Sequence record: PZ445134.1
Direction: 5' to 3' (one strand)
Source of the DNA: a phage
Length of the DNA stretch: 64,000 nucleotides
Shown here: positions 1 through 57,104 of the stretch, piece after piece
Layout: the number at the start of each line of letters is the position of its first letter
Position numbering within the stretch: position 1 is the stretch's first letter
Program-made: the position numbers and the translations under genes
The notes under the pieces: generated by a model
Told to the model about the DNA's origin: nothing
The model's database searches: none
Seen by the model: the letters and a program-made list of their open reading frames with translations, nothing else

Positions 1-348
1 GAACAAAGCATTCAAATTAAATTGTCTATTCAATCGAGCATCAATTGAATCACCTAGCGCCGTCACAGCTACAAAATTATAGTCTTCTTTTAGTTTATTG
101 ATAACACGAAGAGCATCCGAATAAGGCGCTAAGTAACGAATAAAATCAGAGCGATTATATTTTTCTATTAATTGTTTACCGAGGTTATCGTCGGTATTGA
201 ATAGTTTACCAGGAGAAATAAATTTTTCGTCCTGAATCATTTTTAAAATATGTTCTAATGGAAGATTATATTTTTGGGCAAAATAAGGAAGTCCAGATTG
301 CCAGCTTAAACATACACCATCAATATCAGTCAAAATAGTAGGTTTCAT
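1..348 (-). CDS. HAD-family hydrolase-like protein (N-terminal part; 3' end lies outside window)
   Basis: Minus-strand ORF, ATG at 348-346 overlapping stop of downstream gene (ATGA); translation MKPTILTDIDGVCLSWQSGLPYF... with DxDG HAD motif I; open to position 1. Confidence 0.5.
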   Translation of the reverse strand, partial: MKPTILTDIDGVCLSWQSGLPYFAQKYNLPLEHILKMIQDEKFISPGKLFNTDDNLGKQLIEKYNRSDFIRYLAPYSDALRVINKLKEDYNFVAVTALGDSIDARLNRQFNLNALF

Positions 349-797
349 AAAGAGTCTCTTAATAGGTTTAACACATCAATAAATTCAGCTTCGGTTAGTA
401 TTGTATCATCTTTTGTTAGGTGGCTGGCCATGCTGTGCTTCAAAATTTTTCCTTTAGAGGCTTGTAAGGCATCACGAAACCCCTTGTTTTGGATCGCGGC
501 TTCAAAATATGCATTTGTGTATAATTCTTTCCACGCTTCGGAGTATCTTGAAAATGGAACTCCTAACCAGAAGAGAGTCCCACGGTCCTGAGCTCTTGCA
601 TAAGACCTTCCGGCTTGCTGTGCAGCCAATCCAGACAACCTAAATATACGTTTTTGTTGTTCAACATTTTTCACCTTACATCCTTGGAGAAATCCTTCAA
701 GTCCTCCGAATTGAATACCATCCATAACAAAAGGCCATTGAGCAAAGTTACTTAATGCACATGACGGCCATGGAAAATTGCTTCTGATTTCAATCAT
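345..797 (-). CDS. NADAR/YbiA-like (DUF1768-type) protein, 150 aa
   Basis: Track ORF; motif SNFAQWPFVMDG...EGFLQGCK matches the YbiA/NADAR N-terminal signature (SNFA.WP...DG....E...Q..K) as I recall it; C-terminal WG motif not seen. Confidence 0.5.
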   Translation of the reverse strand: MIEIRSNFPWPSCALSNFAQWPFVMDGIQFGGLEGFLQGCKVKNVEQQKRIFRLSGLAAQQAGRSYARAQDRGTLFWLGVPFSRYSEAWKELYTNAYFEAAIQNKGFRDALQASKGKILKHSMASHLTKDDTILTEAEFIDVLNLLRDSL

Positions 798-988
798 AGT
801 CTTTTAAGGCTTTTGATAATTTCTAATTCAGAACTCATGCGAACGTCTTCAGTTCCATCGACCCATAGGACGGTGTAGGCTTCTTTAATTTGAGTATTAC
901 CTAATTTAAAAGCAGGTAGAACCTTTGAAATCATTCCAGGAATACCTATGCCTTTTAACTGGACCGTTTGCGATAAAAATAGTTGCAT
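794..988 (-). CDS. hypothetical protein, 64 aa
   Basis: Track ORF, ATG start, 4-nt overlaps with both neighbours (operon-like coupling). Confidence 0.5.
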   Translation of the reverse strand: MQLFLSQTVQLKGIGIPGMISKVLPAFKLGNTQIKEAYTVLWVDGTEDVRMSSELEIIKSLKRL

Positions 989-1308
989 TAGAACCTCATC
1001 TGGAAACCGTGTGATTTAACATTACCACCGTAGATGTCAGAGGTGTTGACTTCACGGGCGGCACTAGGGTCGATATTGATATCGTGGTTGAGCTTAGTGA
1101 TTGCTAAGGTATCACGACCGTTAACAGTACGGAATTCTACCGGGCATACAACATCAGCATAAGCCTTAATAGATTCACGAGTAGGTTGTTTGTCGGCAGG
1201 AACGTCTTTACCTGCTTTAGAGAAAACAACTTCACAGAAATTTTTACGAGTATCGAAATAAGTGGTCATAAACATAATATTTTCCTCAAAGGAGGCCGAA
1301 GCCTCCAT
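988..1308 (-). CDS. hypothetical protein, 106 aa
   Basis: Track ORF in the gene 30.x-equivalent block; coupled to neighbours. Confidence 0.55.
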   Translation of the reverse strand: MEASASFEENIMFMTTYFDTRKNFCEVVFSKAGKDVPADKQPTRESIKAYADVVCPVEFRTVNGRDTLAITKLNHDINIDPSAAREVNTSDIYGGNVKSHGFQMRF

Positions 1309-1316
1309 TTTTAAGA

Positions 1317-1682
1317 TTAGATATCGAATTCGTTAAGAACTACATCAAAGATTGCTTCGAGATGTTCAGGTTTAGCTCGGTTACTCAGGATATGACGAAT
1401 CCAAGTTTTAACCAGAAGTTTACGATTAACACCGTTCCAGCAAGGATGAGTACCTAAATCACGTTGACGGAAATCATCATCTAATGCAATTTTGAAGTTG
1501 GAACCTTCCATCGTGATTGAAACCGTGATGCCATTTTCAAATCGCATATAAACGTAATTAGGAGTCATATACTGCTCAATTTCGCATACTGAACCGTTAT
1601 TATGCTTCCATAAGCAAATTGTATCGATAGAACCAGCAATACCGTTAGAAACATATTTACGTTCGAAGTTGATGTAGTTCAT
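1317..1682 (-). CDS. hypothetical protein, 121 aa
   Basis: Track ORF; GGAG Shine-Dalgarno upstream; early promoter at 1724-1752. Confidence 0.6.
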   Translation of the reverse strand: MNYINFERKYVSNGIAGSIDTICLWKHNNGSVCEIEQYMTPNYVYMRFENGITVSITMEGSNFKIALDDDFRQRDLGTHPCWNGVNRKLLVKTWIRHILSNRAKPEHLEAIFDVVLNEFDI

Positions 1683-1723
1683 TTTATTCTCCAGATGTTT
1701 AAGTTGTTTGTTGGTACAGGTCT

Positions 1724-1752
1724 ATAGTAACACATCCTACAGGAGAGTAAAC
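1724..1752 (-). promoter_or_regulatory. T4-type early promoter
   Basis: minus strand GTTTAC, 17 nt, TTACTAT; precedes SD/ATG of the 121-aa gene. Confidence 0.5.
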
Positions 1753-1788
1753 ATCTTTTTAAACTTTTTCTGCCCTAAACGCACAAAA

Positions 1789-1806
1789 GGGAGACCGAAG
1801 TCTCCC
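1789..1806 (-). terminator. tetraloop hairpin terminator
   Basis: GGGAGACCGAAGTCTCCC perfect 7-bp GC-rich stem, followed by UUUU on the minus transcript. Confidence 0.6.
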
Positions 1807-1811
1807 TAAAA

Positions 1812-1991
1812 TTATGCAACAACCTTTCCAAAACGAGAAGCATCATCTCGAAGAACTGCACGTGCTCTGCGCATGATCTTCTCAACTGTTTGATTAATAC
1901 GAGAGTTCGACCCACGCTTGTATCCAGCGCGTTTAGAGGTACCATCAACTTTCTTTTCTACTGCTTTCTTTGCTTTAGCTTGTTTTGCCAT
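1812..1991 (-). CDS. small basic protein, 59 aa (MAKQAKAKKAVEKK...)
   Basis: Manually translated minus ORF (ATG 1991-1989, TAA 1814-1812), below track size cutoff; hairpin terminator immediately downstream at 1789-1806; weak SD. Confidence 0.4.
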   Translation of the reverse strand: MAKQAKAKKAVEKKVDGTSKRAGYKRGSNSRINQTVEKIMRRARAVLRDDASRFGKVVA

Positions 1992-2260
1992 TATAAATTC
2001 TCTTTAAATGAAAATGCAGGACTTATTGACATTGCCTGCTCAAGCCCTCAAGGGGAACATAGGTTTTGGATATTTAACGACAGGGATAACCATAAACCCG
2101 TCATCATACCGACCACGACTTAGACAGATAACCTTTTTCTGACGCGTGATAGTACAAAATACATTCAAGAGGTACACCGTAAAATTGTCGGGGCGGTACT
2201 TCTAAAACATACCGATTCGCAAATCGATAATCAGACAATTCGACGGCTCCTCGATTTAAC

Positions 2261-2509
2261 TTACTTCAGGGTAATAACAAAATGACGAACTGCTTTACGT
2301 GCTGCAGAAGCCAGAGGCTTAGCATATTTCAATTCATCTTTCTGAACCAGGATATCGCGAAGATCGGCTTGTGCTGGATTCAGATGTTTGAAATACTGTA
2401 AGATTTCAAGAGCTTCGGCTTCAACATCAATAGATGCGCCGTAATTGTCATGGCCATTATTCCATGCATGGCGTTGCAGTTCAAGAGCGTGTTGTAATTG
2501 TTTAATCAT
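2261..2509 (-). CDS. rIII: lysis inhibition accessory protein rIII
   Basis: 82 aa; near-identical over most of its length to my recollection of T4 rIII (MIKQLQHALELQR...KAVRHFV.TLK). Confidence 0.9.
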   Translation of the reverse strand: MIKQLQHALELQRHAWNNGHDNYGASIDVEAEALEILQYFKHLNPAQADLRDILVQKDELKYAKPLASAARKAVRHFVITLK

Positions 2510-2633
2510 TTTAAATTCTCAATTCGAGATAATACTTAGTAGCCACGTTCTTCTGAATTTCACTTTCTTTCGACAAGTCTCTCAGTTGTAGGCTACCGCT
2601 TAGAAGAGTGTTCTCTTCATATAGTTATTTATA

Positions 2634-2966
2634 TCACTTATAAAGACATGGAATAGCTTTATAGTGGCATGTTACGAATTTCTGTTTAATTTCTTTAGGT
2701 TGTTTAAGTCCCAAAGCCACAAATGGATGTGGAACATTTCGAATTTGTCCAACTGGTAGTGGAGTCAAATCACCGACTTCAACAAAACCTTCAGGAACAT
2801 CAGGACCTACAGAATGAACTACACATAGTTCAGGAACTTCACCTTGAACACGTTTACCAATCACAAGTCCTGATTCGGTAACTTCTTCATCACCTGCTTG
2901 AGCTGGTTCAGAAACCAGAATGACATATTCACCAACAGCACGAATTGGGAGTTGTACTTCAGACAT
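2634..2966 (-). CDS. 31: gp31 co-chaperonin (GroES analogue)
   Basis: 110 aa; matches recalled T4 gp31 sequence ([34 protein letters not shown]...). Confidence 0.9.
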
Positions 2967-3023
2967 CTTATTTCCTTGTTGTTTGACGATAGATTAATAA
3001 TACTATACTATTCGTAAAGCATA

Positions 3024-3332
3024 TTACATAAGAAGCAAACGTTCCACCGGAGTACCATCAACCGAAATTACTTTATCAAGGCGGAAAGAACGCCACTGAC
3101 CTAACTTGGTGTCGAATGCTCGAACTGATTCACGAGGTTCATAACGAACTTCTGTTGCCGGATTGTTATTTTCATATTTGACTTCAAGTTCATCGCGCGA
3201 AGCAAACATAGTGCGTACCTCACCGTTAGCCTTTTCAAATACAACACAATGAACGCCTACAGACAGAATAGTTTTAATACGTTCACGAAGAACCATAGTT
3301 TCTTGTTCAGTTAAAATCATATTATTCACCAC
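3024..3332 (-). CDS. hypothetical protein, 102 aa
   Basis: Track ORF between cd and 31 (T4 cd.x position). Confidence 0.55.
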   Translation of the reverse strand: MVNNMILTEQETMVLRERIKTILSVGVHCVVFEKANGEVRTMFASRDELEVKYENNNPATEVRYEPRESVRAFDTKLGQWRSFRLDKVISVDGTPVERLLLM

Positions 3333-3903
3333 AAAAGTTTCGGATTTGTTCCCAATTCAGAGAACGAAGATTATTACGAGAGTACTGAATTACTTCAATA
3401 CCGGCTTGTTTTAGAATGTCTGCCCAATTTTCAGGAGATCTGTCATATAATTCTGCGTATACAACCTTTTTAATACCTGACTGCGTAATAGCTTTAGTGC
3501 AATCAGGACACGGAGAAAGCGTCGTATATAACGTAGCACCTTCAATAGAATTACCTTTACGAGCTGCAAACAAAATTGCGTTCAATTCCGCATGGATTTC
3601 GTTATTAGCAGACCATGCACTATGAGCGGCCCGATGTTCTTTAGCCAAAACAAAATTATCTGCCCGTCCAAATGCTGTAGTGCCTTCTTTATGACCAGCA
3701 ACGATGACCGGGCTTGGTTTATTCTTCAACCAACCGTTTTCGGATGCATGTTCGCAACAGTTTGTACCACCTGAAGGAGAGCCATTATAACCTGTAGAAA
3801 TAATGCGTCCATCTTTTTCAATGACGGCACCAACTTTCCATGAACAACATTTTGATTCTTGAGAAATCAGATATGCAATCTGAAGGTATGTGCTAGCTTT
3901 CAT
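3322..3903 (-). CDS. cd: dCMP deaminase
   Basis: 193 aa, same length as T4 Cd; cytidine/dCMP deaminase zinc motifs HAELNAI and SPCPDC. Confidence 0.9.
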   Translation of the reverse strand: MKASTYLQIAYLISQESKCCSWKVGAVIEKDGRIISTGYNGSPSGGTNCCEHASENGWLKNKPSPVIVAGHKEGTTAFGRADNFVLAKEHRAAHSAWSANNEIHAELNAILFAARKGNSIEGATLYTTLSPCPDCTKAITQSGIKKVVYAELYDRSPENWADILKQAGIEVIQYSRNNLRSLNWEQIRNFCGE

Positions 3904-4895
3904 TATTGAACCTTATTAATATAAGTTAACAGCTCTTTAGTTTGTTCCCAACTGATGCACGCATCGGTAATGGAAACGCCATAGGACATATTATCAGAAA
4001 TTTTTTGATTTCCTTCATGTAGGAATGATTCTATCATAATTCCTTTGACCAAATCATTAGCTGCTAAATTTTTACCAATACCAATTTGATTGCTATAATA
4101 CCCATCAGCGTTTGCATGGCTACAGTCAACCATTACATAATGATTCAGACCTAATGCACTTGCTTTGTTAGAAGCTTCTTGAATATCAGAAGAATGATAG
4201 TTCGGGCCGTTAGTCCCGCCACGCAATACGATATGCGTATTCTGATTACCTTCAGCTTCAACAATGCCTACAGTACCATCGACGTCCATACCCATATACC
4301 GATGAGGCCAGGCGGCACTATACATCGCGTCTGTAGCTACTTTAATAGAACCATTGGTTGCGTTCTTGAAGCCTACGCACATCGGTAGACCTGAAGCAAT
4401 TTCACGATGTGTCTGACTTTCAGTCGTACGGGCGCCAATAGCAACCCATGAGAAAATACCAGAAAGATACTTAATCGTGAATGGGTCTAATACTTCAGTT
4501 GCTAATGGAAGTCCCATACGTAGAAGTTTACGACACAATGTTCGTGCAACTATAAGACCGTGGTTCATATCAAAACTTCCGTCAAGATATGGATCATTTA
4601 CAAGACCTTTCCAACCTACGGTAGTTCGAGGCTTTTCAAAATAAACGCGCATCACTAACAGAACATTAGGAAGACGAGTTTGAAGTTCAGCCAGACGTTT
4701 GCCATATTCAACAGCAGCAATAGGGTCATGAATTGAACAAGGACCTACAACAATAAGTTTGCGTGGGTCTTCACCGTTCATAATCGAATTAACTTGTTCG
4801 CGATGAGAAGCCACTTGTGATGCGTAAGCTTCCGACAAAGGAATAATCTCAGCCAGTTCTTTTGGAGAAATAAGTTTTCTGATGACAGGTAACAT
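3903..4895 (-). CDS. 3-deoxy-7-phosphoheptulonate (DAHP) synthase, class I AroG-type
   Basis: 330 aa; motifs RVYFEKPRTTVGWKGL and GARTTESQTHRE.ASGL are hallmark AroG/AroF segments; AAGGA SD; start/stop overlap with cd. Confidence 0.85.
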   Translation of the reverse strand: MLPVIRKLISPKELAEIIPLSEAYASQVASHREQVNSIMNGEDPRKLIVVGPCSIHDPIAAVEYGKRLAELQTRLPNVLLVMRVYFEKPRTTVGWKGLVNDPYLDGSFDMNHGLIVARTLCRKLLRMGLPLATEVLDPFTIKYLSGIFSWVAIGARTTESQTHREIASGLPMCVGFKNATNGSIKVATDAMYSAAWPHRYMGMDVDGTVGIVEAEGNQNTHIVLRGGTNGPNYHSSDIQEASNKASALGLNHYVMVDCSHANADGYYSNQIGIGKNLAANDLVKGIMIESFLHEGNQKISDNMSYGVSITDACISWEQTKELLTYINKVQ

Positions 4896-56444: not shown

Positions 56445-57104
56445 TTAACCTCGATTCATAAATGCGTTAAATATTTGGTCATCAACAGAAATTTCTAATT
56501 CGACTTCAATTGTTTCAGCCTTTTCTTCAGGTGGTAATTCGTATCCACACACTACAATTTTTTCATCGATATCAAAATATACAGAAGCAATACGATTAAT
56601 GTTACTTTCAGTTAAGTCTAAATCAACATCAACATCTTTTTGACCTACACTTAAAGGATAACTAATACGGGTTATTTTATTATCTTTAACAAAGAGTCCA
56701 CCGACATACTCTGTACTATGTTTGAAGCTTACACGTTTCCGAAATGAAAGATATGATGCATCTTTACCGTGAGCTCGGCTCATAGGACATAATGAATAGC
56801 TAGAATAAGAGATGTCAAATCCTACACCTTCAATATGAGCCAACGCGTCATGATTAAACCAATTATAATCATATGCCAAATCCATTATATTGTAATATGT
56901 GAAAGGCACTGGATTAACATCATACGTTGTACCTTTAAAATCTGCCCAGGCAACGATTTCGTTATCTTTAACAATTACAAAAATTACACCAATATGGTAT
57001 CCGTTATTATTTTCATTCGGCGTTATATTATAACATTGTGCATTAGGAAATTTACCATATTTAAATGGTGCGTTTTTGTGCATGTAATAAATCATATTAT
57101 TCAC
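56445..57104 (-). CDS. hypothetical protein, 219 aa
   Basis: Track ORF. Confidence 0.55.
   Translation of the reverse strand: MNNMIYYMHKNAPFKYGKFPNAQCYNITPNENNNGYHIGVIFVIVKDNEIVAWADFKGTTYDVNPVPFTYYNIMDLAYDYNWFNHDALAHIEGVGFDISYSSYSLCPMSRAHGKDASYLSFRKRVSFKHSTEYVGGLFVKDNKITRISYPLSVGQKDVDVDLDLTESNINRIASVYFDIDEKIVVCGYELPPEEKAETIEVELEISVDDQIFNAFMNRG

Follow-up and report, generated by a model that had tools for sequence, protein, structure and literature searches.

Background

The gp30.3 protein of phage T4 was renamed AdfN (anti-DarT factor NADAR) by Johannesman et al. 2025, and it has been found to be both necessary and sufficient for DarTG1 resistance in T-even phages (PMC11825919). Deletion of adfN left T4 and T2 unable to form plaques on DarTG1 cells, and ectopic adfN rescued RB69 on DarTG1 (PMC11825919). 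In vitro, the T4 enzyme hydrolyses guanine-ADPr and not thymine-ADPr (PMC11125620), and DarTG2, which modifies thymine, is unaffected by T4 AdfN (PMC11825919). Truncation of the C-terminus lowers the activity of AdfN (PMC11825919). In uninfected cells T4 AdfN is unable to replace DarG1, and T5 and Bas25 are barely helped by it (PMC11825919); thus hydrolase activity alone does not fully account for how the protein works in vivo. As cited in PMC11125620 and PMC11543638, the NADAR prediction had been made bioinformatically by de Souza and Aravind in 2012, and the function of AdfN/gp30.3 is therefore already known, from bioinformatics in 2012 and from experiments in 2023-2025. The phage NADAR group is defined by a His in the last beta-strand, where the YbiA type has a Glu and the DarG1 type an Asp (PMC11125620, PMC11543638). 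E. coli YbiA gives no protection against DarT1 in vivo.

In this study we analysed a gene of this kind in the window, by which we mean the whole stretch of 64,000 nucleotides of phage DNA (sequence record PZ445134.1). The original prediction, which was made from the letters alone, had taken it for a NADAR/YbiA-like protein that might reverse DNA ADP-ribosylation and act as an anti-defence factor. Our main conclusion, to which we give a probability of about 0.92, is that the gene encodes an orthologue of T4 gp30.3/AdfN, a stand-alone, core-only NADAR-fold hydrolase against DarT1 modification. The orthology, the fold, the conserved residues, the intact frame and the synteny were obtained here; the enzymatic activity and the anti-DarTG1 function come from the literature on the T4 protein.

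Results

The adfN gene lies in the gene 30.x block

According to the ORF list, a single ORF of 150 aa, running from ATG to TGA on the minus strand, fills the interval from 345 to 797 exactly (Table 1). The other ORFs within this interval are of 44 to 53 aa on the plus strand and of at most 34 aa in the alternative frames of the adfN strand. At its end, the adfN stop codon shares an ATGA at 345-348 with the start codon of the gene 30.2 orthologue, and at its start the ATG of adfN overlaps the stop codon of the 64-aa ORF in an ATGA at 794-797. With such overlaps at both of its ends, adfN is thus part of a tightly packed, co-oriented block.

The genes of this block stand in the order ligase, 30.1, 30.2, 30.3, 30.4-like, 30.6, 30.7, ..., rIII, 31, 31.1 and cd, which is common to T4, SF, RB69 and Escherichia phage vB_EcoM-RPN187 (Mosigvirus; RPN187 below), and adfN is found between 30.2 and the 30.4-like genes. 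The location in the gene 30.x block that had been predicted is borne out by this order, the same as in T4, RB69 and RPN187. The DNA around adfN is 97.5% identical to that of RPN187 and 80-90% identical to that of most T4-like phages. A Pfam search of the neighbours revealed no domain in the RPN187 30.2 orthologue or in the ORFs 794..988, 988..1308 and 1812..1991. Scanning of positions 1..3000 for promoters gave 5 sigma-70-like sites, as compared with 7.9±2.7 in shuffled sequence, and the terminator scan of 1..3000 found no terminator on the adfN strand.

We also considered the internal out-of-frame ORF 30.3' (75 aa) annotated in T4 as a possible part of the feature and rejected it, the longest alternative-frame ORF on the same strand here being of 34 aa. 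The lack of a counterpart of 30.3' (3128..3355 in the T4 region compared) argues against 30.3' as a conserved gene.

Two other observations were made on this part of the window. An equivalent of gene 30.8 seems to be missing at 1683..1811, between the ORFs 1317..1682 (30.7; PF06919) and 1812..1991 (30.9-like), where a CDS of some 330-370 nt is present in RPN187, SF, RB69 and T4. The alignment of positions 1..3000 of the window with RPN187 falls into two parts and takes up 3445 bp of the latter, and this implies that about 445 bp have been deleted here. Farther along, a gene for a DAHP synthase, annotated in phage SF as phospho-2-dehydro-3-deoxyheptonate aldolase, was found; it is an auxiliary gene of the shikimate pathway, and none was seen among the T4 features compared.

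Table 1. Features of the adfN locus and other genes of the window discussed in the text
Feature	Position	Strand	Basis
adfN (gene 30.3 orthologue), full-length; 150-aa NADAR-fold predicted DNA ADP-ribosylglycohydrolase	345..797	minus	PF08010 and T4 orthology
Gene 30.2 orthologue, 5' part, runs off the window	1..348	minus	sequence; synteny with T4, RPN187 and RB69
64-aa ORF upstream of adfN, positional equivalent of 30.4/30.5	794..988	minus	RPN187 gp207 at the same position
NADAR signature S16-N-F-A ... D26-G ... E34-x3-Q38-x2-K41	675..752	minus	aligned to YbiA residues 29-55
Predicted catalytic Glu E34 (T4 E36), codon	696..698	minus	alignment
Predicted catalytic Lys K41 (T4 K43), codon	675..677	minus	alignment
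H121, phage-NADAR histidine of the last beta-strand, codon	435..437	minus	conservation; predicted strand 119-122
C-terminal alpha-helix, residues 136-150 (EAEFIDVLNLLRDSL), intact	348..392	minus	model helix 136-149; RB69/T4 alignments
DAHP synthase, 330 aa, directly after dCMP deaminase	3903..4895	minus	PF00793, E=1.7e-74
adfA (gene 61.2) homologue, second anti-DarT factor	56445..57095	minus	PF23813 AdfA, E=1.8e-118

The product of adfN belongs to the gp30.3 family

The Pfam hmmscan gave a sole match, to PF08010 (Phage_30_3, 'Bacteriophage protein GP30.3'), with an E value of 3.9e-69 and a score of 231.3 bits (cut-off 36); the match runs over model positions 2-138 of 138 and covers 139 residues. 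In the PHROGs collection the protein matched phrog_652 (E=1.4e-51), which has no annotated function. By BLASTP, 141 of 149 residues (95%) are identical to T4 gp30.3 (AF158101 128307-128765). Using tblastn, adfN was detected in 1511 phage records, spanning phages of Escherichia, Klebsiella, Aeromonas, Acinetobacter and Vibrio, and in all except seven of them (1504) at least 80% of the gene is covered. Its occurrence in these 1511 records makes it clear that the ORF is a genuine gene. When 1.84 billion cluster representatives were scanned in full with HMMER, 721 relatives came out at E<=0.001.

The annotation of the gene in the databases is uneven. Its closest relatives in GenBank label adfN 'hypothetical protein', and the RefSeq record of phage SF (NC_055749.1) leaves an apparently intact 30.3/adfN unannotated (1848..2296 of the SF region compared). 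Several database copies of 126 aa begin at the residue equivalent to M25, so that the SNFA motif is missing from them, and other copies are fragments fused to domains of neighbouring genes (PF11097, PF06919). These short or fragmentary copies may be start-codon miscalls, or else natural alleles with an N-terminal frameshift, analogous to the C-terminal one of RB69.

Among the distant PF08010 domains, seven proteins from the HMMER scan showed tandem duplications or fusions to ASCH, GDSL lipase, LGT (prolipoprotein diacylglyceryl transferase) and an FtsW/RodA-like membrane domain. Such partners are unexpected for a DNA de-ADP-ribosylase, and this suggests that cellular members, which may act on other substrates, exist in the 'phage' subfamily as well.

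Profile comparison and structure prediction place AdfN in the NADAR superfamily

As direct library matches to NADAR failed, the NADAR link had to rest on profiles and fold. The Pfam NADAR family (PF08719) showed no match to the protein even at E<=10, because the protein is in the phage gp30.3 subfamily (PF08010), outside the YbiA subfamily, and TIGR02464 scored it at 13 bits, where 73.7 would have been required. When the single sequence was compared by phmmer with the PDB sequences, only YbiA (2b3w) was found, with an E value of 0.23 and by way of the SNFA...E-x3-Q-x2-K stretch; an hmmsearch of the same sequences with a 10-sequence family profile again returned only YbiA (E=8.7e-4). The comparison of profile with profile was clearer. 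Against a YbiA/NADAR family alignment built from homologues of MG1655 YbiA, the 10 sequences of the gp30.3 family gave a probability of 93.8% in hhalign (E=1.7e-7), and an alignment of 60 gp30.3 sequences, the members of which are at most 42% identical, gave 97.7% (E=2.3e-12) over 140 columns. Bridging sequences were seen in both directions, as some YbiA homologues are labelled both PF08010 and PF08719 and some distant PF08010 domains give sub-threshold matches to the PF08719 NADAR family. In the profile search that had been proposed along with the original prediction, PF08719 stayed unmatched, and the match came from PF08010 and, through hhalign, from YbiA.

The AlphaFold2 model computed from the family alignment had a mean pLDDT of 80.8 and a pTM of 0.78, residues 1-20, which include the SNFA motif, being of low confidence (pLDDT 47-55). 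The model displays the YbiA fold, a helical core flanked by small sheets that is superposable on solved NADARs, and sequence-profile homology connects the protein with bona fide NADAR/YbiA proteins. Foldseek against viral predicted structures returned gp30.3-like phage proteins first, followed by dozens of giant-virus and phage proteins that bear the name NADAR. These results for the allele in the window reproduce those published for T4 AdfN (PMC11825919). We concluded from three independent tests, the profile-profile comparison, the predicted fold and the catalytic residues, that the product of adfN is a member of the NADAR superfamily. The reservation attached to the original prediction, that the protein might turn out identical to a 30.x protein of T4 with a known but unrelated fold, has no force here, since its 30.x counterpart in T4, gp30.3, is itself a NADAR.

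The N-terminal signature is conserved and the C-terminal part differs from YbiA

The N-terminus reads C13-A-L15-S16-N-F-A-Q-W-P-F-V-M-D26-G27 ... E34-G-F-L-Q38-G-C-K41, and its signature can be aligned position by position with E. coli YbiA FSNFAAWPIKVDGKTWPTSEHYFQAQK. The SNFAxWPxxxDG...ExxxQxxK motif on which the original prediction had been built is thus present at the N-terminus, and it lies within the hhalign alignment with YbiA described above. The phmmer, hmmsearch and hhalign scores given above show that this match goes beyond chance. In an alignment of 60 diverse family members, S16, N17, E34, Q38, K41 and H121 are each at least 90% conserved, and H121 is invariant in one family alignment.

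The C-terminal part was predicted to diverge and to lack the usual WG motif, and the alignments agree with this. Opposite the YbiA segment E125-H-T-x-N-D130-x-Y-W133-G-D-G-G they place K120-H121-S-M-A-S-H-L-T-K-D-D, in which there is no W-G, and the ADP-ribose contacts D130 and W133 of YbiA have no counterpart in the protein. In all alignments H121 stands opposite H126 of YbiA, and E125 of YbiA stands opposite K120 or a gap. As it pairs with YbiA H126, the His adjoins the Glu column and lies outside it; this offset fits the published wording, in which the residues are 'thought to correspond'. In the model and the alignments, a beta-hairpin is inserted at about residues 70-86 of the phage protein relative to YbiA.

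These differences bear on whether the protein could be a housekeeping N-glycosidase of the YbiA type, which would have no role in defence and would destroy reactive intermediates of the riboflavin pathway, the function that has been proposed for YbiA of E. coli. We rejected membership of the YbiA subfamily, since the protein scores below both curated thresholds (PF08719 and TIGR02464) and lacks E125 and D130-x-x-W133-G. E125, D130, W133 and G134 are invariant in the YbiA set, and for the T4 orthologue both a clear DarTG1 phenotype and DNA de-ADP-ribosylation activity are on record; a housekeeping role of this kind is accordingly extremely unlikely.

The protein also differs from DarG1. The DarT1-associated DarG1 proteins (BC4488-type NADAR; G. 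lovleyi 8bat, E. coli C7) have N-terminal extensions and a catalytic Asp in the last strand, whereas the phage protein consists of the core alone and has a His in that strand. Nor is it a DarG1 linked to DarT, because there is no toxin gene adjacent, the neighbours being the 30.2 and 30.4-like genes without Pfam domains.

The allele in the window is intact, unlike that of RB69

With T4 AdfN the protein shares 95% identity over 149 of its 150 residues, the PF08010 domain, the ATGA overlaps, the flanking genes, the E, K and H residues and an intact C-terminal helix. It differs (window/T4) at I2/L4, P9/R11, K49/R51, R53/G55, E87/P89, I118/V120, M123/I125 and H126/G128, and its N-terminus is two codons shorter; moreover, the phage is a relative of Mosigvirus, whereas T4 is a Tequatrovirus. 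The orthologue of RPN187 has S-G where the protein in the window has S125-H126.

The gp30.3 of RB69 has the same genus-level background and is 96% identical over the shared part. It differs by a 1-nt insertion of T after ...ILT, by which ...ACC GAA... becomes ...ACT TGA... and the last 15 residues are lost. RB69 is sensitive to DarTG1 because its gp30.3 is truncated (PMC11825919). The allele in the window might likewise be decayed or weak and give no protection; the phage would then either depend on AdfA or be sensitive to DarTG1. Its relationship to Mosigvirus, the genus of RB69, its eight substitutions relative to T4 and the N-terminally short (126 aa) and fragmentary copies in the databases are in keeping with this. 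However, alignments with RB69 and T4, made for both DNA and protein, showed that the T insertion with its frameshift is absent from the allele, that the frame is open to the stop codon of T4, and that the last 23 residues (128-150), and with them the C-terminal helix, are identical to those of T4 AdfN; S16, N17, E34, Q38, K41 and H121 are also all kept. We therefore consider a decayed allele very unlikely. A Mosigvirus-like phage with the intact allele would be expected, from these comparisons, to be DarTG1-resistant, unlike RB69.

The window encodes a second anti-DarT factor, AdfA

The window also contains a homologue of adfA, the product of which is 97% identical to RB69 AdfA and 68% to T4 AdfA. 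Both AdfA and AdfN are anti-DarTG1 factors of T-even phages, but the two proteins are unrelated, and AdfA works by binding DarT1. At RB69 position 164 the AdfA of the window has Arg, as in RB69. AdfA with Arg-164 has been reported to be unable to neutralise DarT1, for which R164H, as in RB69 escape mutants, or the natural His of T4 is needed. If the published rules transfer, the phage would counter DarTG1 with AdfN instead of AdfA, which is the opposite of evolved RB69.

Discussion

Given the 95% identity and the conservation of all key residues, we assign the mechanism of T4 AdfN to the allele in the window, and we infer from it both the enzymatic step and the phenotype. The phage would make AdfN during infection. 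DarT1 released from the DarTG1 toxin-antitoxin system of the host would ADP-ribosylate guanines in the phage DNA and so block replication, and AdfN would cleave the N-glycosidic bond between ADP-ribose and guanine, by which unmodified DNA would be restored. AdfN would thus act as an 'orphan antitoxin', an enzymatic mimic of host DarG1 that works without binding the toxin. In the protein, E34 and K41 of the SNFA...E-x3-Q-x2-K motif are predicted to hold the distal ribose of ADP-ribose, H121 in the last strand would occupy the place of the acidic residue of other NADARs, and the C-terminal helix 136-150, intact here, would be needed for full activity.

The proposal that the protein is a NADAR reverser of DNA ADP-ribosylation with an anti-defence function is supported by the publication of the 95%-identical T4 AdfN as such and by the NADAR link that we derived again here. 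Its target was originally given as DarT-type toxins; on the literature for T4 AdfN, this holds for DarT1, which modifies guanine, and fails for DarT2, which modifies thymine.

The protein might instead bind DarT1 stoichiometrically, in the manner of AdfA or AdfB, rather than act by catalysis. The T4 mutants E36A and K43A have lower activity and abolish the rescue in vivo only partly (PMC11825919), and the partial rescue kept by these catalytic mutants would agree with binding. However, no contact between T4 AdfN and DarT1 was seen in the two-hybrid assay, and purified T4 AdfN strips ADP-ribose from DarT1-modified DNA while E36A does not (PMC11825919), which leaves binding in place of catalysis hardly probable at all.

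A further question is whether DarT1-modified DNA is the main substrate of AdfN. Its main substrate might be guanosine-ADPr on RNA or the products of other ART toxins (YarT-like, pierisin/ScARP-like), the anti-DarTG1 effect being one facet. G-ADPr made by ScARP on DNA is hydrolysed by every NADAR family, the T4 enzyme among them, NADARs also act on G-ADPr in RNA, AdfN has its full effect only in T-even infection, and non-DNA enzymes (LGT, GDSL lipase, FtsW/RodA-like) occur as fusion partners of distant PF08010 domains. Against this, T4 and T2 become sensitive to DarTG1 once adfN alone is deleted, and C-ADPr is listed as reversed by the NADAR and YbiA types and not by the phage type. We regard another main substrate as unlikely, and retain DarT1-modified DNA as the main substrate.

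Because AdfN fully works only in T-even infection and is unable to replace DarG1 in uninfected cells, AdfN could also have a partner encoded by the phage. The candidates would be the translationally coupled 30.4-like ORF (794..988) and gene 30.2 (1..348), the ATGA coupling of adfN with both flanking genes being found here as well as in T4. The conserved adjacency and coupling would speak for such a partner, which seems quite improbable nonetheless.

Conclusions

Phage AdfN is a clear example of a virus that undoes the DNA modification made by a host toxin with an 'orphan antitoxin' enzyme, as published for T4 gp30.3 in 2023-2025. The understanding of the system is unchanged by the present analysis, the value of which lies in annotation and in a prediction: the intact adfN predicts resistance to DarTG1 despite an AdfA of the inactive Arg-164 type. 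The predicted DarTG1 resistance would be useful in the choice of therapeutic phages.
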